Made by a program: the position numbers and the translations under genes. Below, piece by piece: positions 44,617 through 62,278 of a stretch of DNA of 64,000 nt (positions are counted from its first letter, which is position 1; each line of letters begins with the position of its first letter). The stretch lies in the sequence record NZ_CP067423.1; one strand, 5' to 3'. The notes under the pieces are model-generated. The model had not been told where the DNA came from and did no database searches. It saw only the letters and a program-made list of their open reading frames with translations. This DNA is from a plasmid.

Positions 44617-44621
44617 TCCAG

Positions 44622-45593: not shown

Positions 45594-46462
45594 GGCGCCG
45601 GAGCCTGGCAATGCTGCAGGACATCCGCGGCGGTGATGCGCTCCTCGCCGGAGCGGATTGCGTGGATGCCCAGCTCCGCCAAGGTGCCGAACACAGTGGC
45701 GGCGACGCCGTCGCCGTGGGTGGCCAGCGCCTTGACCGCGCGCACGGTCATCACCGAGGGGCGGCGCAGGGGCAGCCACCGCAGCACGCTGCCAACCAAC
45801 GTGTCGAACTCCGGTCCTGGGTCCCAGCACGGCAGCTCGACCGAGCGGAACCGGCGCGCCAGCTGGCGGTCATGGAACAGCGCCTCGCGGGCATCGCGCG
45901 TGCCGAACAAGGCCAGTGGGACTTGAAGCGTATTGGAGAGATGCCGGATCACGGCCAGCATCGTCCGCTGCTGCCGCACCGAGCCCAGCAGCATGTTATG
46001 CGCCTCGTCCACCAGGATCTGCCGGACGCCGATCATGCGGTAAAGCTGGATCACCCGGTCTGCCAGGCGTGGAACCGGCGATCTGGTCGCGGCCGGCGGC
46101 GTCCCGATCGCAGCCAACAGGGCCTCGTAGAACCAGCGCACGTCGCAGACCGGGGGCATCTCCACAGCGACGACCGGTGTCCGGCGGATGCCGGCCGCCA
46201 GGTCGGCCACGATAGGATGCTGCCGCAGATGCCGGTGCAGGATCGTGGTCTTGCCTTGGCCGGGGTCTCCCCAGACCAGCAGGTTAGGGGCAGCGACGGC
46301 TCCGGCCCCGGCCAGTTGCTCCTCCATGAGATCAAGCACCTGCCGACAGCGTGGGTATTCCATGAACCACCGCCGTCGCATCCACGCAATCCGCTCAACG
46401 TCCGGAAGCCGGGCCGTATCGTGTGCCTCCGGCGTCAGATGCCCGTAGCCATCAGCCATCGC
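45587..46462 (-). CDS. tniB: TniB AAA+ ATPase (transposition regulator)
   Basis: Start MADGYGHLTPEAHD; Walker A VWGDPGQGKTTIL; ILVDEAHNML Walker B. Sits between tniA and tniQ. Confidence 0.85.
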   Translation of the reverse strand, partial: AMADGYGHLTPEAHDTARLPDVERIAWMRRRWFMEYPRCRQVLDLMEEQLAGAGAVAAPNLLVWGDPGQGKTTILHRHLRQHPIVADLAAGIRRTPVVAVEMPPVCDVRWFYEALLAAIGTPPAATRSPVPRLADRVIQLYRMIGVRQILVDEAHNMLLGSVRQQRTMLAVIRHLSNTLQVPLALFGTRDAREALFHDRQLARRFRSVELPCWDPGPEFDTLVGSVLRWLPLRRPSVMTVRAVKALATHGDGVAATVFGTLAELGIHAIRSGEERITAADVLQHCQAPAPS

Positions 46463-48104
46463 CAGAATCCGCCTCGTAGTACGGCAGCAGGAGCGGTGCA
46501 TCCTCATCCACATCGGCGTCCGGCGCGGAGCACCCGATGGCAGGGAACAGCAGATCGCGCATCGGCCGCGCACCACTGCGAGCGAGTGCCAGTCTCGCTT
46601 TCCGACTGCGGCCGCGCGCTTCCTCCAGCGTTTTGCGCCGGGCGAGGATCATGTCGAACACCATCCCCTCATCCACGCCGGCACGGCCCTGCCGCCGCAA
46701 GACGCGGACCGCGGCGCGGTGCTCCCACAGCGAAATGGCGGGACGGCGCAGATTGCGGTACGCGACTTGAAGATAGCCGCCGGCTGCCCCGCGGACATGC
46801 ACCTGGGCCAGGTTGGCCGGGTCATAGTGCACCATGACCTTTCGGCGGTCGTGCAGCAGCGGCAGCAGGGCGTCATGCCAGTAGCGGATTCCAAACATGT
46901 GGATGCCGTCGCGCTGCACCGTCCGCTCCTGCCAGGGCAGGAAGTCGTAATGGAACTCCCGCAGGTCGGGCGGCAAGCGCGGGGTCGCGCCGGCAGTCAG
47001 TTCCCGCCATCGGGCGATTGGTGCCGTGGCGATCGCGCTGTGGAAGCTGGCGTTGTGTTCGAGAATGATGCTCGCCACCATCCACTCGATCTCGGTGATG
47101 GTGAGGCAGGCGTTGCCCTCGGCGTCGTAGGCGCCGCGCTCCTGGATATTGGAGAAGGTCGAGCCGTCCAGGAGGTGCAGCTCCTGCGAGAGATGGCCGA
47201 GACGCCGCTCGACATGGCCGCCGAAGTGCGGCCGCCGCACCGGCCTGTGCCGAACGGCGATACCGTAATCCTCGCAGGCACGGGTAAAGGCGCGCGAGTG
47301 GAATTCCTTGCCGTTGTCGACATGGATGGTCTCGGGCAGGCCGCAGACCGGCCAAGCAGCTGGCAGCTTCCGGTCCTCCAGCCACGCTCCCTTGTCCATG
47401 ACGGCGTGCAGCAGGCAACAGGCGACACTTGTGGCCGAGGGAGGATCGAAGGTGAGATGGAAGCCTGCATACATCCGCGAGCAGACGTCGATGGCGAGCG
47501 TGATGAAGGGGCGCCCGATAGGCTCCAGCGTCTCCGGCTCGACGGCGATAACGTCGGCCGGCGTGTGGTCGACCTGCAGCAATTCCAGCGGCCGCTCCGC
47601 CCGACAGGCGCCCAGCACCGGATCAAAGGCGTCGGCGGCTGCTTTGGGGCCGTGCCGCCGCCGTGTGCTCTCGCGGCGGCTGATGCTCGCCAGGCGCTTG
47701 GTGACGGTCTCTCGGTCGGGAGCGGGGAGCGCGGCGGCGTGGCAGCGCGCCTGGATGTCGCGGGTGAGCTTGGCCTTGCTTGGGCGCAGTTGCTGCAGAT
47801 AGTTGTTCTGGATTTCGTCGGCGACGATCGCTTCGACCTGCGGGTCAAGATGTCGGCCGCCTGGGCTTGGACCCGGACGACGGGGCAGGAGTGACCGCGT
47901 CCGCGGATCCGCCCTGTAGACACGCAGCAGGCGATACAGGTAGCCGAGGCTGATCGCCAATTCCTCAGCCGCGGCGGACGCCAGCTCGATGCTCGGGCCG
48001 GACCTTTCGGCCTGTTGGATGAGACGCCGCAGGACAGCTTCCCGTGCTCGCGCCACCGCCCAGTGGTCGTCATCGGCTTGGTCCGGGGCGGGCGGGTGCT
48101 TCAC
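46452..48104 (-). CDS. tniA: TniA DDE transposase (Mu/Tn7-like, Tn402/Tn5053 family)
   Basis: 550 aa with an rve-type integrase core (LELLQVDHTPADV...TLAIDVCSRMYAGF...IHVDNGKEFHS) and N-terminal HTH. Confidence 0.85.
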   Translation of the reverse strand: MKHPPAPDQADDDHWAVARAREAVLRRLIQQAERSGPSIELASAAAEELAISLGYLYRLLRVYRADPRTRSLLPRRPGPSPGGRHLDPQVEAIVADEIQNNYLQQLRPSKAKLTRDIQARCHAAALPAPDRETVTKRLASISRRESTRRRHGPKAAADAFDPVLGACRAERPLELLQVDHTPADVIAVEPETLEPIGRPFITLAIDVCSRMYAGFHLTFDPPSATSVACCLLHAVMDKGAWLEDRKLPAAWPVCGLPETIHVDNGKEFHSRAFTRACEDYGIAVRHRPVRRPHFGGHVERRLGHLSQELHLLDGSTFSNIQERGAYDAEGNACLTITEIEWMVASIILEHNASFHSAIATAPIARWRELTAGATPRLPPDLREFHYDFLPWQERTVQRDGIHMFGIRYWHDALLPLLHDRRKVMVHYDPANLAQVHVRGAAGGYLQVAYRNLRRPAISLWEHRAAVRVLRRQGRAGVDEGMVFDMILARRKTLEEARGRSRKARLALARSGARPMRDLLFPAIGCSAPDADVDEDAPLLLPYYEADSGDG

Positions 48105-48296
48105 GTCGTCTCACCGGATCTGTCCAGCAGGAGTGAACAGATCCATCCCACGGTTCCACCGAACCGCCCAGCAGGGCATTGTGTGTAAGCCTTGGGAGCC
48201 CTCAGCTCCTGTTGAACTCAACTATCCAGCAGTGACAGCCGTGGAGCCGTGCTGCGGCCGGAACCCAGGGCGAAACAGTACAAAGGAGCAGGGATC

Positions 48297-49067
48297 ATGG
48301 CCATCGTCGGGTATGCGCGCGTCTCCACCGAGGACCAGTCGACCGAGGCGCAGATCCTCGACCTCAGAAAGTTCGGCTGTACCGAGATCTTCCGGGAAAA
48401 CGCCTCGGGTGCTGACCGCGAGCGCCCGCAGCTAAAGGCCGTCCTGAGCCGGGTCAGGAAGGGCGATACCCTGGTCGTCGTGCGCATCGACCGCCTGGCC
48501 CGCTCGCTTGCCCATCTGCTGGACGTCATCGACACCCTGGAGCGCAGGGACGTGGCCTTCAAGTCACTGGGCGACCCGATCGACACCGGCAGCCCGCAGG
48601 GCAAGTTCACCCTGCAGATCCTCGGCGCGGTGGCGGAGTTCGAACGCTCCCTGATCCGCGAGCGCACCAAGGCCGGCGTGCGGGCCGCCAAGGCGATCGG
48701 CAAGAAACCGGGTAACCCCGGCCTGATTGCCAAAGACCCGCTCTCCCGGCGCCGCGTCGCCCGGGCTCGGGATGATCGCCTGACCGAGCGGGTCATCGCC
48801 GGCGCCGACGAGTTCCTTCCCATTGTGCAACGTCTTCGGCCCGGCCACCCCTGGGACCGTGTCGTGGATGTCCTCAACACGGCGGTGAAGAAGCGCCCCG
48901 GCGACAATCCGGCGCCGTGGACGCGCGATGCGCTGATCCGCGCGGTGCGCCGTCTGGTCGCCGACGGCCTGGCCGATCCCGGCGTGCTGAAAGCCGCCCC
49001 GCGCCGCTCCAGAAAGGGGTTTTGTCAGATCTCAGGGCAGCTTGCCGAGAGCGCTTGCAGCGGATAG
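48297..49067 (+). CDS. serine recombinase/resolvase (TniR-like), 3' end replaced by IS6 sequence
   Basis: Start MAIVGYARVSTEDQ. Paralogue of 42431..43387 including the extended C-domain (FLPIVQRLRPG...W..V..LN). The last ~17 codons (GFCQISGQLAESACSG*) derive from the IS6 copy whose left end is at 49015. Confidence 0.8.
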   Translation: MAIVGYARVSTEDQSTEAQILDLRKFGCTEIFRENASGADRERPQLKAVLSRVRKGDTLVVVRIDRLARSLAHLLDVIDTLERRDVAFKSLGDPIDTGSPQGKFTLQILGAVAEFERSLIRERTKAGVRAAKAIGKKPGNPGLIAKDPLSRRRVARARDDRLTERVIAGADEFLPIVQRLRPGHPWDRVVDVLNTAVKKRPGDNPAPWTRDALIRAVRRLVADGLADPGVLKAAPRRSRKGFCQISGQLAESACSG

Positions 49068-49985
49068 GTTCCCGAGCCCATTTTGAGAGATCAAGAGAGC
49101 CGCCATGGACTGCCCGCACTGCCGCTCGTCGGCGACTACGGAGCGGGAGGGGCGAACGGTTCATGGCTTCCGGCGGTTTCGGTGCCGGGATTGTGGGCGG
49201 CGGTTCAACGAGCGGACCGGCACGGCGCTGAACCGGGTCCAGGTCCCGACGGACATCGTGTTTCTCGTGGTCTTCTGGAGATTGCGCTACAAGCTGAGCC
49301 TGCGTGATCTGGCGGAGATGTTCCTGATCCGGGGCATCGTGTTCACCCACGAGGCGGTGCGAGATTGGGAAGCCAAACTGGCGCCACTGCTCAGTGAGGG
49401 CCTACGTAAGCGGCGGGCTGGCAAAGCCGGCCGCTGCTGGCACGTCGACGAGACGTATCTCAAAGTCGCCGGCAAATGGTGCTATCTCTACCGGGCGATC
49501 GATCGCGACGGTAACCTGGTCGACGTCTACCTCAGCAAAAGCCGCGACATGGCAGCGGCCAAGGCTTTCCTTCGTTCCGCCAGGTCGGTCACCCAGGTCG
49601 AGCCCGAGCAGGTCACAACCGACGGCCATACCAGCTACCCTAAGGCCATAACCGACGAACTCGGCACGGACGTCGATCACCGCACCAGTCAGTACAAAAA
49701 CAACGTGATCGAGCAGAATCACCGGAGCATAAAAGCACGCTATCGACCGATGCGCGGCTTCAAGAATTTTGATGCGGCTCATCGCTTCTGCCGCGCCTTC
49801 GACGAGGTCCACAACTTCCTGCGATCGGCCAGCTACATCAACCAGAACGTCTCCCTCGCCCGCCGCCGGACCATCCACGTGCAGCGGGTGGCCGCGTTGC
49901 GGGATCTGATCTCCGTCGCATAATACAGCTTCTGGTAGTCAGACGCTTGTTCAATGCTCAACTTGCCCCGAAAGCTGACAGATCC
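49015..49985 (+). mobile_element. IS6-family insertion sequence, copy 1 (~970 bp)
   Basis: Sequence identical to 57698..58666. Imperfect terminal IRs GGGTTTTGTCAG... and ...CTGACAGATCC. Single transposase ORF. Confidence 0.85.
49105..49923 (+). CDS. IS6-family transposase (272 aa), copy 1
   Basis: N-terminal zinc-finger MDCPHCRSSATTEREGRTVHGFRRFRCRDCGRRFNERTG and a DDE core (WHVDETYLKV...YRAIDRDGN...SYPKAI). Identical to the ORF at 57786..58604. Confidence 0.9.
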   Translation: MDCPHCRSSATTEREGRTVHGFRRFRCRDCGRRFNERTGTALNRVQVPTDIVFLVVFWRLRYKLSLRDLAEMFLIRGIVFTHEAVRDWEAKLAPLLSEGLRKRRAGKAGRCWHVDETYLKVAGKWCYLYRAIDRDGNLVDVYLSKSRDMAAAKAFLRSARSVTQVEPEQVTTDGHTSYPKAITDELGTDVDHRTSQYKNNVIEQNHRSIKARYRPMRGFKNFDAAHRFCRAFDEVHNFLRSASYINQNVSLARRRTIHVQRVAALRDLISVA

Positions 49986-50165
49986 GCCAGCGGCGCAGAC
50001 CGGCGATCTCCATGGCGCGCAGCCCGGCCTTGACCGAAAGCAAGACCACGACCTTGTCGCGGTGCGGGTAGCGCCGGCGCTCATCGCACCAGCGCAGCAT
50101 GGCCGCGACCGCGGTGTCGGTCAGGATCTTCGCCTGCTTGCCCGCCATGTGACAGCATTCCCAAG

Positions 50166-53100
50166 TCAAACCACGCCCGTATGATCACCGGACCCGCTCC
50201 TGCCGTCAAGGGGGCGAAGTCTTTGGAATCGCACGTTTTTCCGCATGTGCGCTTTTTCCGCAACTCGACACCTAAAAGTACCTATTTGCCGAGTGGCGGT
50301 TTTGATTTCGGCCACCAGCCGCTCAGCCGTACGCCGCGACGTGGCGATATGAGGCACCTGTTCGGCCAGGAACGCAGCCGACAGCGGCAGCACTCCCCAT
50401 TCGTTCCTGGCATGGGCGATCAGCCGTTCGACGGCGGTTCCGCCGTCCAGCAGCTCGTTCAGGGTCAGCAGGGTATCGACCTCAATGCCCGGCAGCGGCA
50501 GGTTGCTCAGGATGAACACCTCGCGGTCGGCACGGCCATGGATCAGGCGCAGTCGATCGAGGGCCTGGGCCATGCCGCGCTCGCGTTTGGCTTCGGTGCA
50601 GACCTGCACACGATGGTCGTCGTGCTCGTACACCCCCACCGGCACCGCCGGGCCGTGGCGCATGCGGTGACAGCGGGTTACCCTCCGGTACCGGCCAGTC
50701 AGGTTCAGAGGGATAGGGTCATCACAGTGTATCGCGCGGGCCTGCTGTTCGGCGGCACTCGCCGACATTTCCTCGCGGCCCAGCAGCACCACGGCATCGT
50801 AGTGCTTCCACGCGTCGATGCCCAGGATGGCGCCGTAGTGTGTCCAGGTGGCGCCGCCGAACTCGACCGACACCGGGATCTTGCCGGACCCTTCACCGGT
50901 AAATGCGGTACGTACCGGCTTGTTGGTCACCACCAGCACCTTCCCGCCTTTGGCCTTGCGTGAAATCCAGGCCAGGATGCGGGCGCGAAGGGCCTGGGTG
51001 TGCTCGACCTGCCGGTCAGTCGGCGTGCTGAACACCGCCTCCGGAGCGATGTAGGATTTCGCCAGCGTGGCGTTCCTGATCTGGGTAACCCGACCCAGGC
51101 GCCGTGCCATGATCTCGCGTCCGGCCAGATTGGAGCCGAACAGGATGCGGTTGGTGGCGAGGTCGGCGTCGGCATCGATAATCAGGAGCGGAATGCCCTT
51201 CGGCACGGCCTTGGGCGCTGAGTGGCGATGCAGGTGGAGGTCACCGTCGCGGTAGCTGACGCCGTGGGCGATGTCGCGCGGGTGGCGCAGCTCGCGGGCG
51301 AGCTGGCGAACGATGCGGCCGACGATTTTGCCCTGGTGAAGTTTAAGCTTTTCCGTAACTTCCTCGATGGCCTTGTCCGACATAGCCGGAGAAATATCCG
51401 GCCCGATATCGGTTGGCTCGGCCCAGCGTGCCAGGGTGTCGAGCTGCTTCCTGTTGAGTTTTGCGTCCCGGATCGCAGCCAGCATGGGGGCACCGCTGGT
51501 AATAGCAACCAGCAGGCGGGCACCCAGCGCGGCGGCATCGTCCTGTTCGTTGGTCAGGGCTGCGCTCTGGTAGGTTGCCGGTTCGGCCAGAAGGGCGGCG
51601 CCAACCGTTGCCGAGGTCAGCAGCGTCCGGGTCGAATCCTCGTCGATAACGGCCAGATCTGCGGCCGGAAATCCGAGCGGCTTGCCCAGGGTAAGGTGGT
51701 CATGGACGAACAGGTGCAGGCCGGCACCCTGGTTCAGATAGTTGTTGATGTACTCGCACCCCTTGAAGTGGGGGCACATGGTGTCGCCGCGCATGCACAG
51801 GGCTGAGAACACGGAGGGCACTTTGCCGGCCAGCTTGCGGGCGGTCCGATGCCGGACGCAGGGCGCATTGCCGATTTCCGCTTCGTGGTCGCGGCCACGG
51901 TGGAGCACGACCAGTGGCGCTGGCCAGACATCCCTGGTCAGGTCCTTCATGGCGCTTTCGAAGCCGCGCGCCAGGGCAACGGTTGGAAAGAAGCCGTGAA
52001 ACTGGCGGTTCCAGAGCTTCGGGTGGCGCAGGTAGGCTTCCCGCACGCCTGACGATTTGCCGAGACCAGCAGCGGCGGCAAGCTGGAGCCGGGGCGGGCG
52101 CTTCAGGTCGATGCCGGGATAAGTGCGGGCAACGGCCCGATCGATGGTGCGCCTGGCATCCCGCTTGTCACGGGCGGACATGCCATCGGTAATGAAGGCA
52201 TCGCACTGATCCCTGGTATAGTCGCAAGCCTCCAGCCAGCGTTCGGCCTGTGTCATCCAGTCTTCCAGCAGGATCTGGAGTTCGGCGTACGCGGTGGTGG
52301 CATCCACCGTCGTTGCCGGCCAGTGCGGCACCGGTTTGGGGGAGGTATCGGTGTTGGTCGACTTATCGGGGGTGGGGCTGCTGGGCGGCAGCACCGGCAC
52401 GGCGCCGTCCAGCATGGCGCGCACGGCATCGAGGCCCTGGGTGCGCAACAGGTCGTTGGCGTCCTTTACGTCGGCGGGTGGACGGGCGATCCAGACGTTA
52501 CAGCCGGCAGCGGCCAGCACCTTGCACGTTTCGGCAAGAGACTTCGCGGCCCTGCTGTCCGGGGAATCGTTCTGGGCGGCAATGACGATGCGGCGCTCTG
52601 CCGGTACCGAGTCGACCAGGCGCTTCAAGCCACCGAAGGCAACGCCAACCATGGCGTCGGGTCGGGCGGCATACAAAGTGATGCCATCCTCCGGACCTTC
52701 GCCGCAGATCACGTCACCGTCGCCATCGGACAGCCAACCGATGGCATGGTTGAGGCTGAGGGAGCCAGCTGACAGCTTGGCGACACCATCGCGCTTGTCG
52801 CCATCGGCCTTGAGGCGAACAGCCTGGAAGCCGTGAACCTTGCCGGTCAGATCGGTTGCCGATATTAGAAGCGCGGGTGCGGTGGTGTAGGAATCCGGCT
52901 TTGCCTTATGGCCGGAGTGGAAGCGAATGCGGCCGGTACGCTCGAGAGTATCAACTACATCGGCCGGAATGCCACGGAACTTCACCAGATAGGTTTCGGC
53001 AAGGGTGCCGGTGATGCTCCTGGCAGCAGCCCACTGCTGGCTGGCGAAGATGGACGGATCAGCTTCGTGCTGGGTCGGCTTCGCCTTGCGCTGGGCGATC

Positions 53101-53420
53101 ACCGGAAATTGGACACGCTCTTTCAGGGCATGTTCCAGGGCGTCGATGAATCCCATGCCGGTTTGATGCTGGATCAGGGCGATCATGTCGCCCTTGGTGC
53201 CAGCCTCCCAGTCAACCCAGGTGCCGGCATGCTTGCTGGCGAAGTTGACCTTCAGGCTTCCTTTGGCACCGAATCGGGCGTGGGTGCTGGTAATGCTGGT
53301 CGGCTTGCCGTGGTACTCGGCGGCGATTTCAAGGGCACGGTCGGCAATGCGGCGGCGTTGTTCGTCAGTTACGCGCGCAGGATCGCCTTCCGCCCTGATC
53401 GAGCGGTTGGGGTATCCCAT
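50166..53420 (-). CDS. large Toprim-domain protein, putative plasmid/conjugative DNA primase (~1084 aa)
   Basis: N-terminal primase-like segment (GSLKVNFASKHAGTWVDWEAGTKGDMIALIQHQTG). Toprim region (RIVIAAQNDSPDSRAAKSLAETCKVLAAAGCNVWIARPPADVKDANDLL). Start chosen at MGYPNRS (ATG 53420), 14 bp after the upstream gene. Confidence 0.65.
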   Translation of the reverse strand: MGYPNRSIRAEGDPARVTDEQRRRIADRALEIAAEYHGKPTSITSTHARFGAKGSLKVNFASKHAGTWVDWEAGTKGDMIALIQHQTGMGFIDALEHALKERVQFPVIAQRKAKPTQHEADPSIFASQQWAAARSITGTLAETYLVKFRGIPADVVDTLERTGRIRFHSGHKAKPDSYTTAPALLISATDLTGKVHGFQAVRLKADGDKRDGVAKLSAGSLSLNHAIGWLSDGDGDVICGEGPEDGITLYAARPDAMVGVAFGGLKRLVDSVPAERRIVIAAQNDSPDSRAAKSLAETCKVLAAAGCNVWIARPPADVKDANDLLRTQGLDAVRAMLDGAVPVLPPSSPTPDKSTNTDTSPKPVPHWPATTVDATTAYAELQILLEDWMTQAERWLEACDYTRDQCDAFITDGMSARDKRDARRTIDRAVARTYPGIDLKRPPRLQLAAAAGLGKSSGVREAYLRHPKLWNRQFHGFFPTVALARGFESAMKDLTRDVWPAPLVVLHRGRDHEAEIGNAPCVRHRTARKLAGKVPSVFSALCMRGDTMCPHFKGCEYINNYLNQGAGLHLFVHDHLTLGKPLGFPAADLAVIDEDSTRTLLTSATVGAALLAEPATYQSAALTNEQDDAAALGARLLVAITSGAPMLAAIRDAKLNRKQLDTLARWAEPTDIGPDISPAMSDKAIEEVTEKLKLHQGKIVGRIVRQLARELRHPRDIAHGVSYRDGDLHLHRHSAPKAVPKGIPLLIIDADADLATNRILFGSNLAGREIMARRLGRVTQIRNATLAKSYIAPEAVFSTPTDRQVEHTQALRARILAWISRKAKGGKVLVVTNKPVRTAFTGEGSGKIPVSVEFGGATWTHYGAILGIDAWKHYDAVVLLGREEMSASAAEQQARAIHCDDPIPLNLTGRYRRVTRCHRMRHGPAVPVGVYEHDDHRVQVCTEAKRERGMAQALDRLRLIHGRADREVFILSNLPLPGIEVDTLLTLNELLDGGTAVERLIAHARNEWGVLPLSAAFLAEQVPHIATSRRTAERLVAEIKTATRQIGTFRCRVAEKAHMRKNVRFQRLRPLDGRSGSGDHTGVV

Positions 53421-53433
53421 GTCAGATTCCGCG

Positions 53434-53745
53434 TCACTGTGCGGAGACGATGAGACGTACCTGTCCGGTGATGCCGGCCGTGCGTTCTGCGCCACGGGCA
53501 GCTTTGCGCCAGTCGATATAGCCCAGTTCGACTAGCAGATTATACACCCGGAAGATCGCGGCCTTGGTCACGCCAAGCCGGCGCGACAGGTAATCCGGAT
53601 CGGTGACAATCTGGCCGTCATCTGCGGGGTGGATAGCACCGGTTTCGTCGGCGTGATGGCTCATCACGCCAATGGCATGGAGAGCGGTGGCGGATGTGAT
53701 TCGCGGATCGATCATTGCGCGCAAGGCGACGTTGGCAACAGCCAT
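53434..53745 (-). CDS. small winged-helix DNA-binding protein (~104 aa), likely autoregulator upstream of the primase-like gene
   Basis: From MAVANVALRAMIDPRITSATALHAIGVMSHHADETG...YLSRRLGVTKAAIFRVYNLLVELGYIDWRK (HTH). The ORF-track N-terminal extension is non-protein-like and would span the operator palindromes. Confidence 0.45.
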   Translation of the reverse strand: MAVANVALRAMIDPRITSATALHAIGVMSHHADETGAIHPADDGQIVTDPDYLSRRLGVTKAAIFRVYNLLVELGYIDWRKAARGAERTAGITGQVRLIVSAQ

Positions 53746-53810
53746 CGGGATGGATCTCCCTTGGTCAGCCAGATAGCCGCTTGCATCAACCACGTCGCGT
53801 CGTCCATGAT

Positions 53811-53865
53811 TCGACTCGAAATTCGAGTCGACCTTGAAATTGGACACTATAACGATTATAGTGTC
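53811..53865. promoter_or_regulatory. two adjacent perfect palindromes (TCGACTCGAA-a-TTCGAGTCGA and GACACTATAA-cga-TTATAGTGTC), probable operators
   Basis: 10-bp perfect arms each, 11 bp apart, 66-120 bp upstream of the wHTH gene start on the minus strand. Confidence 0.45.
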
Positions 53866-54288
53866 TGGAGACGCTGGCTGAGGCATTCGGTCCTTAGCTG
53901 ACGGAGTAGCAAAGTCCATTGATCCTGGGCGCTGAAACCATGGGATCGATGGCGGCGAAAAATGACTGAGGGCGGCACTGTGTGGTAGCGGTGTCGCCCT
54001 TAGTCGTGTCAAGTATGTTACTCTCTGGCTGGTTGCGGGACAACACCTTTTTTTCACTACATCATTTAGACCGTGAAAAAGCCCACGCGATAGATTGGGT
54101 AGGGATCGGCCTCCTGTGACAGGAGCGACGCATTAAATTGGCTTATCGGATATGAGGAGCCGCTTCATGCATCGCCTCTGCTTTCACAGTGCCGATGCAA
54201 ACATGTGGAGTGACCTTCCGGTTCTTCTTTTGAATAGTTGCTCCACGGAGAACCGACGGACCCTGCGGAGGCTGACGGAATTCGAAGC

Positions 54289-56499
54289 TCAGGTTGCGTG
54301 TTCCCGCTGAGCCACCGGACCAGCGGCCTCGAGGTCTTCCGGCAGGTAGTGCGCGAGCCGGCTGATCTGCTCGGCGGTGACGGCGCGGGAGAACAGCCAG
54401 CCCTGGAGGTGATCGCAGCCGGCCCGGCGCATCAGCTCGGCCTGCCTTTCGGTCTCGACGCCTTCGGCCACGACCTGCATGTCGAGGGCGCGGGCGACGG
54501 CGACGCTGGCCTGCACCAGCGCCTGGGCGGTGGCGCTGTCGACGGCATCGACGATCATCGAGCGGTCGAGCTTCAGCTTGTCGAAGCGGAACTGGCGCAA
54601 AAACCCGATGCTGGCGTAGCCGGTGCCGAAATCGTCGAGCGCCACCGTGACGCCGAGCCGCTTCAGCTGGTCCAGCACCCGCTCCGCGACATCGGGCGAA
54701 CCGACCAGGTAGGTTTCCGTGATCTCCAGCTCCAAACGCGCTGGCGGGAAGCCGGTCTCGGCCAGGATGCCGGCCAGCGAAGCGGGGAAACCAGGATTGC
54801 GCAGCTGCGCCGCCGAAACGTTGACAGCTACCTTCAGATCCGGCCAGGTCAGCGCCTCGGCGCAGGCGCGCTGGAGGACAAACAGGCCGAGCGCGTCGAT
54901 CAGCCCGCTCTCCTCGGCGATCGGCACGAACTCGGCCGGACTGACCACGCCCAGCACCGGGCTGGTCCAGCGCAGCAGCGCCTCGACGCTCGACACCGCC
55001 CGGTCGCGCGCCCGCACCAGCGGCTGATAGACCACTGTCAGGCCCTGATCGGTCAGCAGGCTGGCCCGCAGCTCGGTCTCAATCCGGTGAGCCTTCTGCC
55101 GGGCCTGGTCAAGTGCGGCGTCGAAGACGCACAGGCGCATCCTGCCGGCGTGCTTGGCGGCGTACATCGCGACGTCGGCCCGGCGGATCAGCTCCTCCGT
55201 GCTCAGCTCGCCGCGCCGGCGGTCGGCGAAACCGATGCTGGCGCCGATCAGAACGGTGCGCTCGCCCAGATGGAAGGGAGCGGCGAGACGATCGAGCAGG
55301 AGGGCGGCCACCGCCCGGGCGCGTGCCGGCGCCTCGCCGCCGGTGAAGACCAGGGCGAACTCGTCGCCGCCCAGCCGGGCGATGAACCCGGCCGGCCCGG
55401 CGAGCTCGCGCAGCAGGCGGGCCACCGCCAGGATCAGCTCGTCGCCGACGCCGTGGCCGTAGCAGTCGTTGACGCCCTTGAAGCCATCGAGATCGAGCAG
55501 CAGCAGCACGGTCGCGTCTTTGGCCTGGTCGAGCTCGACGAGCAGGGAGCGTCGGTTAGGCAGGCCGCTGAGCCCGTCGACCAGGGCCTGCCGGGCCAGC
55601 GAGACGAGCGAGCCCAGCCCCTGTGCGGCAACAAACCACAGCAGACCGGCGGTGATCGTGAGCGCGCCGAGCACCGACGGCAGGGCCGTGCGCAGCGCCT
55701 CGAGGCCGGGCTCGGCGCGCCGCCACGACAGCGTCCCGATCGCCTCCCCGAGGCTGTCCCGCAGGGTCAGGGCGCTGCGATCCGAAGCCGGAGGACCGGG
55801 CCTGAGATCCTCGACCAGCAGCGTGTTCGCCATTTCGTCGAGCATCGGCTGGGACAGCTGCTGGGAGAACACCAGCCGGTGCGGGTGATCGCCGGCAATC
55901 CGCTGCGCCAGGGCCGGCGAGGTTGGAACGATGTTGGCGATGCCGATGATGGCCGGTCCGGCATCGGTCCGGACCAGGCCGCCGACCGGCTCGGTACCCC
56001 GGGGATCGAGGGTGGCGAGCAGCGCATCGAGAGCGGGGCCGTAGAGCGACGCCGCCGACTGCATTGTCGGCTGTCCTCCGGCAAAACCGCTGATCGTGGC
56101 ATCCCCGGCATTGAGGATGAACATGCTGTCGTAGTTGTGGCCCTCGCCGGTCAGGATGCCCCAGGTGCGTTCGACGAAGTCGAGGTCCAGCGGCCCGTAG
56201 ATGGCCCGCACCGCGTCATCCCAGTAGCCGTTGTCGCCGGCCTGGGCGGCGATGCGCCGGAAGGTCAGCTCGAGGCTTGCACCGACGGCCTGCACCGCCC
56301 GCTCCTGATCGATCCGGTTGGCTTCCCGCGCCGTGTGGATCAGGCTGTAGGCCAGCACCGCAGCGAACAGCAGAAACAGGACCAGCGGCGGCAGCAGAAC
56401 GCGTCGCCGTTCCGCACCCAGTACTATGGATCGAGAAAAGGCCGGCCTCGAAGCGCACAGGCCATCCCGGGAGCGTTTGTTCTGGTGAAGGCGCATCAT
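54289..56499 (-). CDS. membrane-anchored sensor GGDEF-EAL protein (diguanylate cyclase/phosphodiesterase)
   Basis: Two TMs flanking a periplasmic domain. GGDEF (RLGGDEFALVF), EAL (EALLRW), and downstream DDFGTGYASIGFL and QGWLFSRA motifs. Confidence 0.9.
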   Translation of the reverse strand: MMRLHQNKRSRDGLCASRPAFSRSIVLGAERRRVLLPPLVLFLLFAAVLAYSLIHTAREANRIDQERAVQAVGASLELTFRRIAAQAGDNGYWDDAVRAIYGPLDLDFVERTWGILTGEGHNYDSMFILNAGDATISGFAGGQPTMQSAASLYGPALDALLATLDPRGTEPVGGLVRTDAGPAIIGIANIVPTSPALAQRIAGDHPHRLVFSQQLSQPMLDEMANTLLVEDLRPGPPASDRSALTLRDSLGEAIGTLSWRRAEPGLEALRTALPSVLGALTITAGLLWFVAAQGLGSLVSLARQALVDGLSGLPNRRSLLVELDQAKDATVLLLLDLDGFKGVNDCYGHGVGDELILAVARLLRELAGPAGFIARLGGDEFALVFTGGEAPARARAVAALLLDRLAAPFHLGERTVLIGASIGFADRRRGELSTEELIRRADVAMYAAKHAGRMRLCVFDAALDQARQKAHRIETELRASLLTDQGLTVVYQPLVRARDRAVSSVEALLRWTSPVLGVVSPAEFVPIAEESGLIDALGLFVLQRACAEALTWPDLKVAVNVSAAQLRNPGFPASLAGILAETGFPPARLELEITETYLVGSPDVAERVLDQLKRLGVTVALDDFGTGYASIGFLRQFRFDKLKLDRSMIVDAVDSATAQALVQASVAVARALDMQVVAEGVETERQAELMRRAGCDHLQGWLFSRAVTAEQISRLAHYLPEDLEAAGPVAQREHAT

Positions 56500-56786
56500 T
56501 TACTCAGCTATATTTTTTGAAGGCAGTTATGTTTATGGTGGAGAAAGGGAGCGATCTCGGCTTCAGCGGCAGTGTTGACATCAGGGCCTGCAAGTCATCC
56601 TGAACTCCAGTCCCGGCGCACTTTCCATGAATACTGATAAAGATAGATTTATGGACGATTAAGGCATCCGTGCGTGGTGTATGACGCACGGGCTATGGCG
56701 GAAACTGGGTGATGAGGAGATGAGGGAGGCGGCGTATCGAGATAGGTGCTTGAAGCCTGCCTGAACCTCCAGAGGGGCGATACGCC

Positions 56787-57060
56787 ATGAACGAGGATAG
56801 CAGCATTGTCCGGTTTCGCCAGCCCGACACAATCGACGATCTCCTGACGGCCTTCACCCTCTATGAACACATCTCCCATGCATGGACAAAGGAGCCACAA
56901 CGGTTCAACCTCAATCCGCTCCACCAAATGCCGGGATTAAACATCTAGCTTTGAAAGGTCGCCGGTTCGAAACCTGGACCGAGATCGAGCAGGCCGTTGA
57001 ACGCGCCACCGCCTACTGGAATGAGCACAAGCATTCCTCCATCTGGAGACGCTGACGGCA
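56787..57060 (+). pseudogene. transposase remnant (IS630-like C-terminal fragment)
   Basis: Frames give ...RRFETWTEIEQAVERATAYWNEHKHSSIW (resembles the IS630 transposase C-terminus in this window, AITAYIDDRNADPKPFRW). No intact ORF. Confidence 0.35.
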
Positions 57061-57697
57061 CCACCGCCAAGCCCGCCGTCTCGGTGTTGCCACCTTCCCA
57101 GCAATCTCACTGATTGAGCGGATGTACCACTAAGGCACCCACATCTTAATTTTTAGAAATCAGGCGTCTATTGGGGTTACGGAACTTTAATGATGATCAG
57201 GAGGTAAAAGAAACGGCATTCATGAGATAAATATCGGCAGGACTTAAATACATCGTTATTACAGCTTGTGACAAATTTTCTTGAAGTTGAGCAAATCAAA
57301 CAATCAATGTGCTGCCTCATCTCTAATCATACGATATGATCATGATGGAAAAATCGTATAAGCTTTACAATAGATGAAACTAAAACAAAAAATAATGCTG
57401 AAAAATATCTTATCTTTTATGTAAATTACTTGCCTATCTGCCGTGATTGTTCGTTTTATAGATCGACAACTTTTGAGAGGTGGCGAGCATGGATGAGGTT
57501 CATCCCCGAATTCGGTCGCTTGTTGAACTGTGGCAGCTGAGGTGCGGGCCGGACGACATCCCTTGGCGCAGTGACCTCAGCGTTTTCGCGCTGAAGCCGT
57601 GGCTGGGCTGCCTGACCATCTTTGAGGAAATCGAGAAGGGCAGCGATTATCTCGTTCGCCTCGATGGTCAGGGCGTTGTCGAATTGACCGGCGCCGA

Positions 57698-58666
57698 GGG
57701 TTTTGTCAGATCTCAGGGCAGCTTGCCGAGAGCGCTTGCAGCGGATAGGTTCCCGAGCCCATTTTGAGAGATCAAGAGAGCCGCCATGGACTGCCCGCAC
57801 TGCCGCTCGTCGGCGACTACGGAGCGGGAGGGGCGAACGGTTCATGGCTTCCGGCGGTTTCGGTGCCGGGATTGTGGGCGGCGGTTCAACGAGCGGACCG
57901 GCACGGCGCTGAACCGGGTCCAGGTCCCGACGGACATCGTGTTTCTCGTGGTCTTCTGGAGATTGCGCTACAAGCTGAGCCTGCGTGATCTGGCGGAGAT
58001 GTTCCTGATCCGGGGCATCGTGTTCACCCACGAGGCGGTGCGAGATTGGGAAGCCAAACTGGCGCCACTGCTCAGTGAGGGCCTACGTAAGCGGCGGGCT
58101 GGCAAAGCCGGCCGCTGCTGGCACGTCGACGAGACGTATCTCAAAGTCGCCGGCAAATGGTGCTATCTCTACCGGGCGATCGATCGCGACGGTAACCTGG
58201 TCGACGTCTACCTCAGCAAAAGCCGCGACATGGCAGCGGCCAAGGCTTTCCTTCGTTCCGCCAGGTCGGTCACCCAGGTCGAGCCCGAGCAGGTCACAAC
58301 CGACGGCCATACCAGCTACCCTAAGGCCATAACCGACGAACTCGGCACGGACGTCGATCACCGCACCAGTCAGTACAAAAACAACGTGATCGAGCAGAAT
58401 CACCGGAGCATAAAAGCACGCTATCGACCGATGCGCGGCTTCAAGAATTTTGATGCGGCTCATCGCTTCTGCCGCGCCTTCGACGAGGTCCACAACTTCC
58501 TGCGATCGGCCAGCTACATCAACCAGAACGTCTCCCTCGCCCGCCGCCGGACCATCCACGTGCAGCGGGTGGCCGCGTTGCGGGATCTGATCTCCGTCGC
58601 ATAATACAGCTTCTGGTAGTCAGACGCTTGTTCAATGCTCAACTTGCCCCGAAAGCTGACAGATCC
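57698..58666 (+). mobile_element. IS6-family insertion sequence, copy 2
   Basis: Identical to copy 1 (49015..49985). Left junction fuses to a truncated ORF (57489-57697). Right junction truncates virB8. Confidence 0.85.
57786..58604 (+). CDS. IS6-family transposase, copy 2
   Basis: Protein identical to 49105..49923. Confidence 0.9.
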   Translation: MDCPHCRSSATTEREGRTVHGFRRFRCRDCGRRFNERTGTALNRVQVPTDIVFLVVFWRLRYKLSLRDLAEMFLIRGIVFTHEAVRDWEAKLAPLLSEGLRKRRAGKAGRCWHVDETYLKVAGKWCYLYRAIDRDGNLVDVYLSKSRDMAAAKAFLRSARSVTQVEPEQVTTDGHTSYPKAITDELGTDVDHRTSQYKNNVIEQNHRSIKARYRPMRGFKNFDAAHRFCRAFDEVHNFLRSASYINQNVSLARRRTIHVQRVAALRDLISVA

Positions 58667-59083
58667 CGCGAGAGCTGGTCGGCTGGGAACGCCGGATGGG
58701 CTTGGACGATGGTCTCGGCCTTGTCGGCGCCACGCGTCCGCGAGAGCTTCCAGAACTGGTATCGCGCCGACAATCCGCAAAGCCCGGCGCAGATCTACAA
58801 GGATATGACGGTCGAGACAAATTTCGTCCGATGGGAGCCGATCTGCCCGGTCGAGAAAGCCTGCATCGCCGACGGCCCTCCCGCCTATCGCGTCTGGTTC
58901 GACCGGGTCGAGACGCTGCCGGACGGCAAGCCGATGCCACCGGTTCGCTATGCCGCGACAGTCGCGATCAAGCGGAACGTCGAACTTCCACAGGACAGGA
59001 TCTGGCAGCGCTGGACCTTCAACGCCCCGCAGATCCAGGTCATCGAGTACGCAGGCGCCCAGCGCGAAGGAGTCAGCAGGTGA
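58667..59083 (+). pseudogene. virB8: 3' fragment of a virB8-like gene truncated by IS6 copy 2
   Basis: Reading frame without an own start encodes a VirB8 C-terminal periplasmic domain (...SFQNWYRADNPQSPAQIYKDMTVETNFVRWEPI...YRVWFDRVE...). Its TGA overlaps the virB9 ATG. The ORF-track start MFNAQ lies inside IS sequence. Confidence 0.6.
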
Positions 59084-60102
59084 TGAACAAAGCACCCCGG
59101 ATCGGCTCGATGGCAGCCGTGGCACTGGCACTGATGTCCTCGGCCGCCACCGCCGCCGAAGTGCCGCAGCCGTGCGGGCCCGATCCGCGTGAGCGCTGCA
59201 TCGCCTACGATCCGAGCCAGATCATCAGCCTGTTCCTGGTGCCCGGCGCCACGACCACTCTTCAGTTGCCTGACAATGAAGTCGTCTACAGCGTCGGCAC
59301 ATCGGATAACGAGATCATCAGCGGCAGGCCGCCGGTCGAACGGGTCGCCACCGGCCAGTCCGCCACCGCCGACGACAATCTTCAGATTCATATGCCGGGC
59401 TCCGACGCCAACCCGTCAAAGTTCCTGATGGTCAAGGCGCTGCGCCACCTCGAGCCGCAGCCGTTCACCGTCATCGGCGTGTGGACGAACCCGGTCACCG
59501 GCAAGCAGGACCATCGTCGCCATTCCTTCGAACTCAGCACCATCCCCGGCGGTCCGCAGACGCCTGACACCTTCTTCTCCGTCGTCTTCTCCGACCCCGT
59601 CGCTGCGAAGATCCTCAAGGAAGCCGAGCGGAAGGAGCGCCAGAAGCTCTGGCAGGAAAAGCAGGAGAAGCTCCAGGCACAGGCCGTGGCCGACCGGCTG
59701 ACGCAGGTTCAGCAGTCCGTCCTCGCCCACAACGTAGCCTATGACGGCCAGGGCACCGACGCCGACCGCATCGCCCTGGCGCCGACGGCGCCGGTCGGGC
59801 TGGATGCGATGTGGGACGATGGCCAGCGCACGTATCTGCGCTATCCCGGAAACCGCCCCGTGCCCCTGGCCTACCAGGTCATGCCCGATAGTTCGGAATC
59901 CGTTATCGGTCAGAGCACCGTGGTCGACTCAGCGACCAAGGGCAGCCTGCTGATCATCCACGGCGTCGTGCCGATGCTCCGGCTGCGCGACGGCAACTCC
60001 GTGCTCTGCATCACGAACAACGCCTATGACCCGGTGGGACACCGGACCGGAACCGGTACTGTCGACCCCGGCGTCTTGCGCCAAGTCAGGAGTGGGTCGT
60101 AA
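59083..60102 (+). CDS. virB9: T4SS-3 VirB9-like protein
   Basis: True start MNKAPRIGSMAAVALALMSSAATA (signal peptide); beta-rich domains with a central charged coiled segment. Positioned between virB8 and virB10 with overlapping stop/start codons. Confidence 0.7.
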   Translation: MNKAPRIGSMAAVALALMSSAATAAEVPQPCGPDPRERCIAYDPSQIISLFLVPGATTTLQLPDNEVVYSVGTSDNEIISGRPPVERVATGQSATADDNLQIHMPGSDANPSKFLMVKALRHLEPQPFTVIGVWTNPVTGKQDHRRHSFELSTIPGGPQTPDTFFSVVFSDPVAAKILKEAERKERQKLWQEKQEKLQAQAVADRLTQVQQSVLAHNVAYDGQGTDADRIALAPTAPVGLDAMWDDGQRTYLRYPGNRPVPLAYQVMPDSSESVIGQSTVVDSATKGSLLIIHGVVPMLRLRDGNSVLCITNNAYDPVGHRTGTGTVDPGVLRQVRSGS

Positions 60103-61217
60103 TGCTCGGGAACACCATCACTCCGCAGACCGACGCCACGACGTCGCAGATCGCCGGACCCAGGGAGAGCAGGAAGAAGAAACTCGGCAAGGCGCTGCTC
60201 GGCACCATCACCATCATCGCCGCCGGCTGGTTCATCCTGACCGACAGCCCGCCGCCGCCGGTCGAAGCCGACCGCAGCACCGTCGCCCGCAACGGTGAGA
60301 TCGGCAGCGCCTTCGCGCCGATCCCGCCATCAGCTCCATCGGCAACGCCGACCACCACGAAGCCGCCCCTGCCGCCGGCAAGGCCGACAGGCACGGGCAT
60401 GCCGAGCGTGCCCACCATCCTGGCTCGACCTGTCGTTCGGCCGCCGATCTCGGCACTGCAGACGAGTGGAGGACTCAAGACCGCCGCCGCGAATCCCACT
60501 GCACCGACGTCGTCTACCGCAGGCGGCGTCGAAAGCATCTCCGCCATGAACGGCGGCGGCGGTAGTGATCGGCTGGACGAAGGCCTCGAGGCAGGACGCG
60601 ACGGCGGTACGGTTTCCGCAACGATGCTGCCGGACCGCAACCTGTTCATGACAATGGGGACGCCGATCCCCTGCATTCTGGAGCAGCCGATCAACACGCA
60701 GGTTCCCGGCCCCTTCCGGTGCAAGGTTCGCGGACCGGTCTACAGCACGTCCGGCGCGGTGCCGCTGCTGGACGATGGCACCTGGGCGTTCGGGCGCGTC
60801 GCTCAGCACCTGGAGCGCGGGATGGATCGCGCGTTCGCCGTGGTCACCCGGCTGGAGACACCGCAGGGCTGTCTGATCAAGTTGCGGGCCTCACTGGGCG
60901 ACCAGCTTGGAACCCCCGGCATCGACGGTGAGGTCGACACCCACTTCTTCGAGCGGTTCCGCGGCGTCGCCATGATCGCCCTGCTCGATGCCGCCGGTCA
61001 GGCCGCCGCGATCGGCGCGTCTAACGCCATTGGCGCCGACAGCGGCATCTCGTTCAACCAGTTCCAGAGCGGCAGCAAGAACCTCGCCCAGGGCAGCTAC
61101 GGCGACGACATCGACATCCCCCCGACTCTCCGCCGGGCCCAGGCGGCGCAGGTGCTGATCATGGCGATGGACGACATCGACATGCGGCCGTGCTTCTCGC
61201 TGACGATGGCCCGCTAA
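60102..61217 (+). CDS. virB10: T4SS-3 VirB10-like protein
   Basis: N-terminal TM (LLGTITIIAAGWFIL), Pro-rich linker (PPPPVEA...TTTKPPLPPARP), C-terminal barrel domain. Start TAATG overlaps the virB9 stop. Confidence 0.8.
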   Translation: MLGNTITPQTDATTSQIAGPRESRKKKLGKALLGTITIIAAGWFILTDSPPPPVEADRSTVARNGEIGSAFAPIPPSAPSATPTTTKPPLPPARPTGTGMPSVPTILARPVVRPPISALQTSGGLKTAAANPTAPTSSTAGGVESISAMNGGGGSDRLDEGLEAGRDGGTVSATMLPDRNLFMTMGTPIPCILEQPINTQVPGPFRCKVRGPVYSTSGAVPLLDDGTWAFGRVAQHLERGMDRAFAVVTRLETPQGCLIKLRASLGDQLGTPGIDGEVDTHFFERFRGVAMIALLDAAGQAAAIGASNAIGADSGISFNQFQSGSKNLAQGSYGDDIDIPPTLRRAQAAQVLIMAMDDIDMRPCFSLTMAR

Positions 61218-61240: not shown

Positions 61241-62278
61241 ATGAACCACCAACACGCGGCCCTTCCCCTGCTCGACTTCGCCCTCACACCGTTCGCCGAG
61301 TTCATGGCCGACGACATGGTCGAGGACATCATCATGAATCGGCCCAATGAAGTGTTCGTCCGGCGCGGGGCGACGACCACGCGCCACGAGGTCGCGGTTG
61401 ACTTCGTCGATCAGCAGGGTATCGCCATCCTGGCCGCCGCCATCAAGGGCCAGAACGTGGGCAAGGCGACGCCGCTGCTGTCCTGTGATCTGCCCGGCGG
61501 TACCCGCCTGCAGGCCGTGCTGCCGCCCTGCGTCAACGACGGCACCGTGGCGCTGGCCATCAGGCGGGCGAAGAAGACGTCACCGACGCTCGACCAGCTC
61601 GCCGCCGGCGGTATCTTCTCCGGTGTCGAGCCGCTGCGGGATGGCCTCTCCCGCGACACGGAAGCCCTGGTCGCCCTCTACCACGAGGCATGCCGCGCCA
61701 CCGGGCCCGATGAACGCCATCACGCCTGGACCGCCTTCCTGCGTGCCACCATGAAAGCCCGCATGACGCATGTCCTGTGCGGCGAGGTCGGGTCCGGCAA
61801 GACCTTCTTCGGCATGGGGCTGGCCAACGAGATCCCGCTGGACGACCGGCTGGTCACGGTTCAGGACAGCGACGAATGGAGCGCCCTACCCCACCGGAAC
61901 CGTACCGATCTGTTCTACAGCAAAGGCGGTCAGGGAGCCGCCAACGTCACACCGAATGATCTGGTTGAGGCATCGCTGCGGCTGGCCATGCGGTGGTTGC
62001 TGCTCCAGGAGCTGCGCGGCGCTGAAGCCTTCTCGTTCCTGCGGGCCCGCCGCTCCGGACATCCCGGCCTGACCACCTGCCACGCCTCCAGCACGCGCGA
62101 GGTCTTCCCAACGCTGGCGCTGATGGTCAAGCAGGCACCGGCCGCCTCCAGCGTCGAGCTGCCCGACATCGAGGCGTCACTGAAGAGCCTGATCGACGTC
62201 GTGGTTCACTTCCACCGGCCCGAGGGACGCTTCGCCGTTTCCGAAGTATGGTTCCGGTATGCGGAGGCCGCAGCATGA
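61241..62278 (+). CDS. virB11: T4SS-3 VirB11-like ATPase
   Basis: Start MNHQHAALPLLDF; Walker A LCGEVGSGKTFF; LLQELRGAEA and TTCHASS motifs. Stop overlaps the virD4 ATG. Confidence 0.9.
   Translation: MNHQHAALPLLDFALTPFAEFMADDMVEDIIMNRPNEVFVRRGATTTRHEVAVDFVDQQGIAILAAAIKGQNVGKATPLLSCDLPGGTRLQAVLPPCVNDGTVALAIRRAKKTSPTLDQLAAGGIFSGVEPLRDGLSRDTEALVALYHEACRATGPDERHHAWTAFLRATMKARMTHVLCGEVGSGKTFFGMGLANEIPLDDRLVTVQDSDEWSALPHRNRTDLFYSKGGQGAANVTPNDLVEASLRLAMRWLLLQELRGAEAFSFLRARRSGHPGLTTCHASSTREVFPTLALMVKQAPAASSVELPDIEASLKSLIDVVVHFHRPEGRFAVSEVWFRYAEAAA

Follow-up and report, generated by a model that had tools for sequence, protein, structure and literature searches.

How did two identical copies of an insertion sequence (IS) of the IS6 family come to stand on either side of a 7.7-kb piece of plasmid DNA, with a broken gene at every one of their four edges? 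The question is raised by a stretch of 64,000 nucleotides from sequence record NZ_CP067423.1 (the window, to which all positions refer unless stated otherwise), which by our inference belongs to plasmid pTT6-3 of Skermanella cutis TT6. An earlier note on this DNA had described the locus as an IS6-bounded composite transposon that truncated both a resolvase gene (res1) and a virB operon, and whose cargo might travel as a unit. The structure does have the form of a pseudo-compound transposon, but the evidence set out below speaks against its having moved as a unit. We read it instead as the scar of a multi-step rearrangement, in which a unit made of one IS and 7.7 kb of DNA was incorporated at an IS26-like IS already resident on pTT6-3, and we give this reading a probability of about 0.5. 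The case is a new example of the well-known remodelling of plasmids by IS6-type elements.

That two identical IS6-family copies lie in direct orientation about 7.7 kb apart was borne out. An exact direct repeat of 969 bp occupies 49017-49985 and 57698-58666, its starts being 8,681 bp apart and 7,712 bp of other DNA separating the copies. Relatives from S. aerolata, S. stibiiresistens, Azospirillum canadense and plasmid pTT6-1 of strain TT6 align only over positions 2-969 of this repeat, which shows that its first G is a chance shared flank base and that the IS proper measures 968 bp; the two copies (Table 1) are 100% identical. The ends of the element (GGTTTTGTCAG... on the left and ...CTGACAGATCC on the right) were placed by alignment with seven relatives, and the same ends were seen in 53 relatives. 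As terminal inverted repeats, GGTTTTGTCAG... and GGATCTGTCAG... match at 17 of 24 positions and carry the GG tips and the cTGTt motif that are a feature of the IS6 family (PMC7986276). The single open reading frame (ORF) of the IS encodes 272 amino acids (aa), scores 208 bits against NCBIfam transpos_IS6 (cut-off 125), matches Pfam DDE_Tnp_IS240 (E = 2e-44) and begins with a four-cysteine zinc ribbon (CxxC...CxxC). Most IS6-family members are 700-890 bp long and encode 220-250 aa, zinc fingers having been described just for the larger clostridial clade h (PMC7986276). At 968 bp the element exceeds the usual range of the family (about 0.7-0.9 kb), and the excess is accounted for by the N-terminal zinc-ribbon extension of its transposase. 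Judged by these features, we class it as a slightly atypical IS6-family member. Searches for further copies of the IS, and for the missing parts of the broken genes, covered three other plasmids of TT6, namely pTT6-1 (821,558 bp), pTT6-2 (475,996 bp) and pTT6-4 (71,359 bp). No identical copy was found on any of the three, those on pTT6-1 being 86% identical, and a search for the empty site of a related copy on pTT6-1 found none. The left end of the IS had no exact match in the GTDB genome collection, which does not include strain TT6.

All four IS junctions interrupt ORFs. On the outer left, res1 retains 240 native codons (48297-49016) from its likely start codon at 48297. At both the protein and the nucleotide level it is 87% identical to a 314-aa orthologue on an A. 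brasilense plasmid up to ...APRRSRKG, after which the frame enters the left IS as FCQISGQLAESACSG, so that the ORF ends ...RKGFCQISGQLAESACSG. The earlier description was thus right that the frame ends inside the IS and too modest in speaking of the last codons, since about 74 of the 314 have been lost. The lost part includes the block TWAxSSVKxLLDRARxQGLL, conserved in the orthologue and in res2, a paralogue in the window; by analogy with other serine recombinases it is probably the DNA-binding end. On the outer right, the remnant directly after the IS aligns to residues ~115-252 of the 252-aa VirB8 of Skermanella rosea plasmid pSR-4. This agrees with the earlier claim that the right copy cut a virB8 gene and left 138 codons of it in front of virB9-virB10-virB11-virD4, and it means that the right-hand VirB/D4 set is incomplete, lacking virB1-B7 and the 5' part (~115 codons) of virB8. 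Both the resolvase and this virB system are presumably now inactive.

The idea that the missing halves might turn up elsewhere found no support: no homologue of pSR-4 virB1-virB8 and no reciprocal resolvase 3' end were detected on pTT6-1, -2 or -4, and neither the res1 3' end nor virB1-B7 has been displaced within the window or onto these three plasmids. On pTT6-1 (NZ_CP067421.1, ~294545-294604; positions 5001-5060 of our extract L092) a res1-like 3' remnant of about 20 codons, TWAPSSVKVLLDRAREQGLI, directly adjoins an ISL3 element. It was the only other resolvase 3' piece found on these plasmids of the strain, and we rejected it as the reciprocal partner of res1, as it abuts ISL3 rather than IS6 and its first codon is not 241; the res1-type recombinase family has been truncated a second time, independently, in strain TT6.

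The two inner junctions cut two further genes, each represented by a 5' fragment that runs into the neighbouring IS. The fragment beside the left copy (translation MAGKQAKILTD...LRAMEIAGLRRW) was called as a cut gene also in a short-read contig, L003, and weakly resembles the start of the catalytic domain of a tyrosine recombinase (NCBIfam XerA-type, E = 0.004); we refer to it as integrase-like. The fragment beside the right copy matches positions 3-67 of the 137 positions of Pfam PAS_5 (E = 6e-4, under the curated cut-off). Each IS copy is therefore flanked by unrelated broken genes, and the two outer flanks, like the two inner ones, are likewise unrelated to each other. Since a contiguous target cannot be rebuilt from any two of the four flanks, a single insertion of a composite transposon cannot explain the structure, and the minimum history requires one insertion and two more IS-mediated events, be they deletion, recombination or incorporation of a unit. 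This argument from interrupted genes is independent of target duplications. A simple cointegrate with a small plasmid was also considered and rejected, the inner ends being 5' parts of different genes and not the two halves of one gene.

The history that we favour runs in three steps. One copy of the IS would first have come to lie between res1 and virB8, and an IS-mediated deletion, by intramolecular replicative transposition in cis or by recombination between two copies, would have removed the 3' end of res1, the intervening DNA and everything from virB1 to about codon 115 of virB8. A circular translocatable unit, consisting of one IS and the 7.7 kb, would have been cut out of a different plasmid, with one of its ends in the PAS_5 gene and the other in the integrase-like gene. 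This unit would then have joined the resident IS by transposase-dependent conservative or by RecA-dependent recombination, leaving two direct copies of identical sequence and four junctions unrelated to one another. Both the order of these events and the circular intermediate are inferred. Cointegrates, pseudo-compound transposons with direct repeats, intramolecular deletions and translocatable units all form part of the mechanism described for the IS6 family (PMC7986276), and the general statement of the earlier note, that IS26-type events (cointegrate or translocatable unit, recombination, adjacent deletion) rather than simple insertion shaped the locus, holds. The pair can still recombine, which would release a circle of 8,680 bp or remove the segment so that a single IS stays behind.

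Compared with IS26-type pseudo-compound transposons and translocatable units such as Tn4352 (PMC7986276), the locus shares identical direct IS6 copies, a DDE transposase of IS6 type, GG-tipped inverted repeats with the CTGT motif, an IS-rich plasmid setting and deletions of neighbouring genes. It differs from them in that neither the unit nor either single copy is framed by an 8-bp duplication, in its non-contiguous outer flanks, in a patchwork passenger that has a truncated gene at each end and for which a second location was not found, and in the length of the IS (968 bp as against 700-890 bp) and its 272-aa transposase with a zinc ribbon. What the locus offers is a view of the remodelling of an environmental repABC megaplasmid, in which a resolvase was apparently inactivated and a second conjugation system lost its leading genes, and in which part of the replication or establishment module of another plasmid came in along with a gene for an enzyme of cyclic di-GMP (c-di-GMP) turnover. 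Specialists in mobile elements may find two further features of interest, an apparent case of independent res-site hunting and an IS6 clade that is almost never accompanied by target duplications.

Evidence on the source of the enclosed DNA comes from its largest gene, which encodes a DUF7146-Toprim protein of 1084 aa, and from the small gene directly upstream of it. In a collection of 5.8 billion proteins, the Toprim protein and the enclosed CHASE4-GGDEF-EAL protein are both found on this plasmid and nowhere else. The next relatives of the Toprim protein are 66-68% identical, and we read two metagenomic contigs with homologues, L004 (66%) and L005 (56%). In both, the small gene remains next to the Toprim gene (9649-13594 in L004, 8977-13005 in L005), and the pair lies 4-6.5 kb from a cluster of relaxase, coupling-protein and VirB11-like genes, with a resolvase between; neither a GGDEF-EAL gene nor an IS6 element is present near either pair. 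What is conserved is a module in which a winged-helix-like protein of about 100-130 aa is encoded directly upstream of a DUF7146-Toprim protein of 1,000-1,300 aa with a P-loop-like C-terminal part. As the pair is kept in plasmid backbones that have no GGDEF-EAL gene, we regard it, on the strength of these comparisons, as a backbone module of conjugative plasmids and the GGDEF-EAL gene as an unrelated neighbour. The coupling protein of L004 is 29% and 24% identical to the two coupling proteins of the window, whereas the Toprim proteins are 66% identical, indicating that the Toprim module does not share its history with either transfer system of pTT6-3. This separate history makes it more likely that a piece of a third plasmid was imported than that the segment arose in situ.

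An origin in situ is nevertheless the rival that survives best, and we consider it possible, if tentative. It would have the segment already present on the plasmid, for example from an older fusion with an L004-like plasmid, and two IS insertions, each deleting the DNA adjacent to it. The relatives of the Toprim pair lie near resolvase and relaxase/coupling-protein genes, and the window has resolvases and two type IV systems; the entire region from 42 to 59 kb is dense with IS and transposon insertions; and adjacent deletions are known for the IS6 family (PMC7986276). What tells against it is that the Toprim module is so much closer to that of L004 than either secretion system is, that the orientation of the Toprim gene relative to the resolvase differs from that in L004 and in L005, and that two separate insertions in the same orientation and two deletions would be needed. 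It is the foreign history of the Toprim module that leads us to rank the incorporation of a unit above separate insertions with adjacent deletions. Several points weigh against the incorporation of a unit in its turn. No donor context, circular form or second copy of the segment was seen in the searched collections, and the reciprocal junction partners may lie on the chromosome or on the rest of pTT6-3, outside the searched replicons. The history in situ, with two insertions and an adjacent deletion at each, needs a similar number of steps, and since almost all relatives of the IS lack duplications, bookkeeping with the flanking 8-mers cannot put the events in order.

Identical repeats are classic sites of mis-joining, and a second IS copy, or the linkage of its flanks, could in principle have come from a mis-assembled repeat; we think this highly unlikely. 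The TT6 genome is a Unicycler hybrid assembly of a PacBio RSII 20-kb library and Illumina reads, with circular contigs and about 2100x coverage (PMC11767975), and such long reads can span the 9.65-kb structure. In an independent assembly of short reads (run SRR13347272), contig L003 equals window positions 49956-55382 and contig L093 begins at 58637, both ending exactly 30 nt within the right end of the IS and joining it to two different flanks. Two distinct right-end junctions in the reads mean that the IS is truly present at least twice, so that the duplication or collapse of copies against which the earlier note had cautioned is not what the data indicate. Two of the four junctions were recovered in this way, both of them right-end; the left-end pair was not.

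The insertion in one step of a ready-made IS6-bounded composite transposon, truncating the resolvase gene and the virB operon together as first proposed, has in its favour the usual pseudo-compound form of direct IS6 copies around a segment, but it can be set aside as extremely improbable, because the outer flanks (res1 codon 240 and virB8 codon ~115) are unrelated genes that were never adjacent codon to codon, no duplication flanks them, the inner junctions cut two further genes, and virB1-B7 and the res1 3' end are missing rather than displaced in the window or on pTT6-1, -2 and -4.

Table 1. Coordinates of the IS6-family pair, the genes at its junctions, the enclosed segment and the neighbouring loci in the 64,000-nucleotide window
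Feature	Position	Strand	Remarks
Tn5053/Tn402-like tni transposon	42119-48237	-	Pfam TniQ, TniB, Mu-transpos_C/rve, Resolvase, DDE_Tnp_ISAZ013
res2, internal resolvase	42374-43387	+	within tni transposon
ISAzo13-family IS	~43316-44640		between convergent res2 and tniQ
tniQ, tniB, tniA	44622-48104	-	within tni transposon
res1, truncated plasmid-type serine recombinase	48297-49017	+	Pfam Resolvase, E = 8e-44; ORF extends to 49067 inside IS
Left IS6-family copy	49018-49985	+	transposase gene 49105-49923
Tyrosine-recombinase-like gene, 5' fragment, 54 codons	49986-50148	-	runs into left IS
DUF7146-Toprim protein, 1084 aa, primase-like	50166-53420	-	Pfam DUF7146 1.5e-11, Toprim_3 8e-6
Small protein, 103 aa	53434-53745	-	directly upstream of Toprim gene
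CHASE4-GGDEF-EAL protein, 689 aa as annotated	54289-56358	-	Pfam EAL 7e-68, GGDEF 2e-32, CHASE4 2e-11
IS256-family remnant, 167 bp	56686-56852	.	86-88% identical to IS256-family copies on Skermanella plasmids
Other repeated-element remnant	56960-57135	.	78% match to unannotated stretch of A. brasilense plasmid
PAS_5-domain gene, 5' fragment, ~70 codons	57489-57698	+	runs into right IS
Right IS6-family copy	57699-58666	+	transposase gene 57786-58604
virB8 3' remnant, 138 codons	58667-59083	+	Pfam VirB8 positions 100-192 of 213
virB9	59083-60102	+	intact ORF; Pfam CagX
virB10	60102-61217	+	intact ORF; Pfam TrbI
virB11	61241-62278	+	intact ORF; Pfam T2SSE
virD4	62275 onward	+	extends past window end (64000); Pfam T4SS-DNA_transf

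An 8-bp target duplication is a hallmark of the IS6 family. The four 8-mers that flank the two copies (CAGAAAGG, GCCAGCGG, GCGCCGAG and CGCGAGAG) contain none in any pairing, direct or reverse-complement, the best match being 4 of 8 positions; on this the earlier note and our analysis agree. We part from it where the absence was used as evidence of the history of the locus. Relatives with recognisable ends, numbering 53-54 and taken from about 40 genomes together with two copies on pTT6-1 (L006, L007, L010-L089), lack an 8-bp flanking repeat in 52 of 53 cases, the sole exception coming from Belnapia (L034). The best matches between their flanks, with offsets of up to ±2, are distributed as in shuffled pairs, and no longer, shifted or inverted repeats were found in 40-bp flanks. 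When the flanks of 50 relatives were joined, reading frames continued across the joint in 7 at shift 0 and in 16 at shift 1 (mod 3), compared with 9 for random pairs. As duplications are missing as a rule, their absence here cannot inform the history of the locus.

The relatives form a zinc-ribbon clade of IS6 elements, about 960-990 bp long, with a 272-aa transposase and GGTTCTGTCAG ends, which occurs in Azospirillaceae, Acetobacteraceae, Ktedonobacteria and others. Either adjacent rearrangement is pervasive in this clade, or its members move without leaving duplications. On the second alternative, IS-targeted conservative joining, or events tied to the deletion of adjacent DNA, might be almost their only means of movement. 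We hold it to be doubtful; if it is true, the four clean junctions in the window would be the normal product of the chemistry of the clade and not the trace of later rearrangement. Two arrangements among the relatives may be recorded here. In Ktedonobacter racemifer (L065) two copies stand in tandem with exactly 8 bp (GGGTGAAG) between them, and in Belnapia sp. F-4-1 (L034, L037) two copies about 10.5 kb apart have the same right flank (GTTTGGCAGGTGGC), which suggests that a unit of IS plus flank was duplicated.

The genes that had been listed as cargo are all present, namely those for the 1084-aa Toprim protein, a 103-aa protein and the CHASE4-GGDEF-EAL protein. Read from the left, the 7,712 bp between the copies hold the integrase-like fragment, the Toprim gene, the gene for the 103-aa protein, a 0.5-kb spacer of lower guanine-plus-cytosine (G+C) content, the GGDEF-EAL gene, an IS256 remnant, a second remnant, about 300 bp of AT-rich DNA and the PAS_5 fragment. 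The G+C content steps from 64-66% to 70-73% and then to 41-54%, and these steps, together with the IS256 scar and the scar of another IS, mark the segment as a mosaic. Around the second remnant there is a short ORF resembling a transposase tail (56882-57055), followed by AT-rich filler of 41-43% G+C up to ~57450; a reading of this ORF as an IS630 remnant was rejected, as it is unrelated to the IS630-family transposase of the window. The segment was not found in a second genomic context in the searched collections, its nearest homologues lying in other contexts. With the Toprim and GGDEF-EAL proteins unique to this plasmid, Toprim homologues free of both GGDEF-EAL and IS6 neighbours, and IS scars inside the segment, nothing shows that the enclosed genes travel as a unit, and the view of them as a mobile functional set should be corrected.

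The 1084-aa protein is identical to an annotated TT6 protein (P0001). Its N-terminal ~330 residues carry the matches to DUF7146, to Toprim_3 (26.7 bits, just under the Pfam cut-off of 27.2) and to a PHROG family named DNA primase (6e-20), and the N-terminal region matches the C-terminal region of TraI_TIGR (TIGR02760 TraI; 1e-26). Over its C-terminal ~600 residues the protein is 24-29% identical to plasmid proteins that bear the annotation TraC primase or helicase-family, and this region contains GLGKS and IDED motifs that resemble Walker A and B (P-loop-like), the GK being invariant in the alignment. With the Toprim primases of plasmids and phages (IncP TraC, the C-terminus of TIGR02760 TraI, PHROG) the protein has in common the family matches of its N-terminal ~330 residues and homologues in conjugative backbones; it differs in its sub-threshold Toprim_3 match and in a C-terminal part of ~700 residues that matches no curated family. 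No solved structure for the protein or for its family profile was detectable by sequence. The label primase-like seems reasonable on these matches. Exact-protein look-ups for the IS transposase, TniA, TniB and the S. stibiiresistens Toprim homologue returned no record.

The 103-aa protein itself had no family match in profile searches. Its counterparts in L004 and L005, each encoded immediately upstream of the Toprim homologue, are 42% (L004) and 32% (L005) identical to it, and the L005 counterpart weakly matches HTH_IclR and phage replication-initiator families; the 103-aa protein is probably a winged-helix DNA-binding protein. In the CHASE4-GGDEF-EAL gene, which has a G+C content of 70-73%, the GGDEF and EAL motifs are intact; its product is 100% identical to the annotated TT6 protein P0013, and the next relative is 52% identical. 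Contig L003 breaks inside this gene at 55382, where the 31-mer has no second occurrence in the window; the break may stem from a repeat in another part of the genome or from poor coverage where the G+C content is 73%. An Rfam scan of 48-59.5 kb matched no RNA family.

To the left of res1 stands a Tn5053/Tn402-like tni transposon. It is bounded at 42119 by TGTCGCTGCTGG... and at 48237 by TGTCACTGCTGG... in reverse complement, and both termini carry repeats of CTGCTGGNCGGTTC; no 5-bp duplication was found at these ends, which are therefore provisional. Transposons of the Tn5053 family are res-site hunters that insert near resolvase genes. The start of res1 lies 59 nt beyond the tniA-proximal TGTC terminus (48237), outside the transposon. 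On the A. brasilense plasmid (L001, 3780-4010) a different tni element stands 58 nt upstream of the res1 orthologue in the same orientation; its terminal repeats differ and its tniAB genes are 69% identical to those of the window, as against 87% for the resolvase. No tni genes accompany the res1 orthologues of the A. oryzae and Azospirillum sp. TSA2s plasmids, two of the three Azospirillum plasmids inspected. The position of res1 outside the termini, the orthologues that have no tni neighbours and the difference between 87% and 69% identity all indicate that res1 is more likely a target than the TniR resolvase of the transposon, and the name Tn402-like that had been given to it is not supported. 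The two tni transposons upstream of orthologous resolvase genes look like independent res-site hunting at one position. With the Tn5053/Tn402 family the element shares the tniABQ module, TGTC termini, repeated subterminal motifs and a tniA end 59 nt from a resolvase gene; it departs from the family in that the truncated resolvase is external, that the internal res2 (~330 aa) is oriented opposite to tniABQ, and that the 5-bp duplication was not found.

Within the transposon, the ISAzo13-family IS has 19-nt inverted ends, AGGAGACGCGCAGGAATAA and TTATTTATGCGCGTCTCCT, and seems to stand in place of the final few codons in both res2 and tniQ. Another IS6/tni junction in the genus is seen on S. aerolata contig100 (L016, 3914-5100), where a related IS6 copy without its last ~18 bp abuts the TGTC terminus of a transposon whose tniAB genes are 68% identical to those of the window.

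The genes virB9, virB10, virB11 and virD4 were found also among the gene calls of contig L093. In S. rosea pSR-4 the VirB/VirD4 (P-type) operon has the same order, virB8'-B9-B10-B11-virD4, with about 73% nucleotide identity over virB10-D4; it differs from the window in possessing virB1-B7 and the first ~115 virB8 codons, and the window has another transfer cluster at 17.4-31.1 kb. This second cluster (17429-31084) looks complete and includes a relaxase and a coupling protein. Two type IV secretion sets with two coupling proteins suggest an older fusion of two transfer-proficient plasmids. Beyond the end of the window, downstream of virD4 (L093 6072-7601, ~64.7-66.2 kb), lie a 74-aa ORF and a gene for a 195-aa TIR_2-domain protein; at this position pSR-4 has a MobF relaxase, which is not there in L093.

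Elsewhere the window holds replication genes of repA type (6330-7571) and repC type (8824-10140) with a 336-aa ORF between them, as well as several IS elements and the tniQBA module. Finally, an ORF at 36265-37428 consists of five or six tandem repeats of ~141 bp, each encoding ...INNSGQVTG...AFLWD..., and adjoins a gene for an RTX-repeat protein at 34776-35789.

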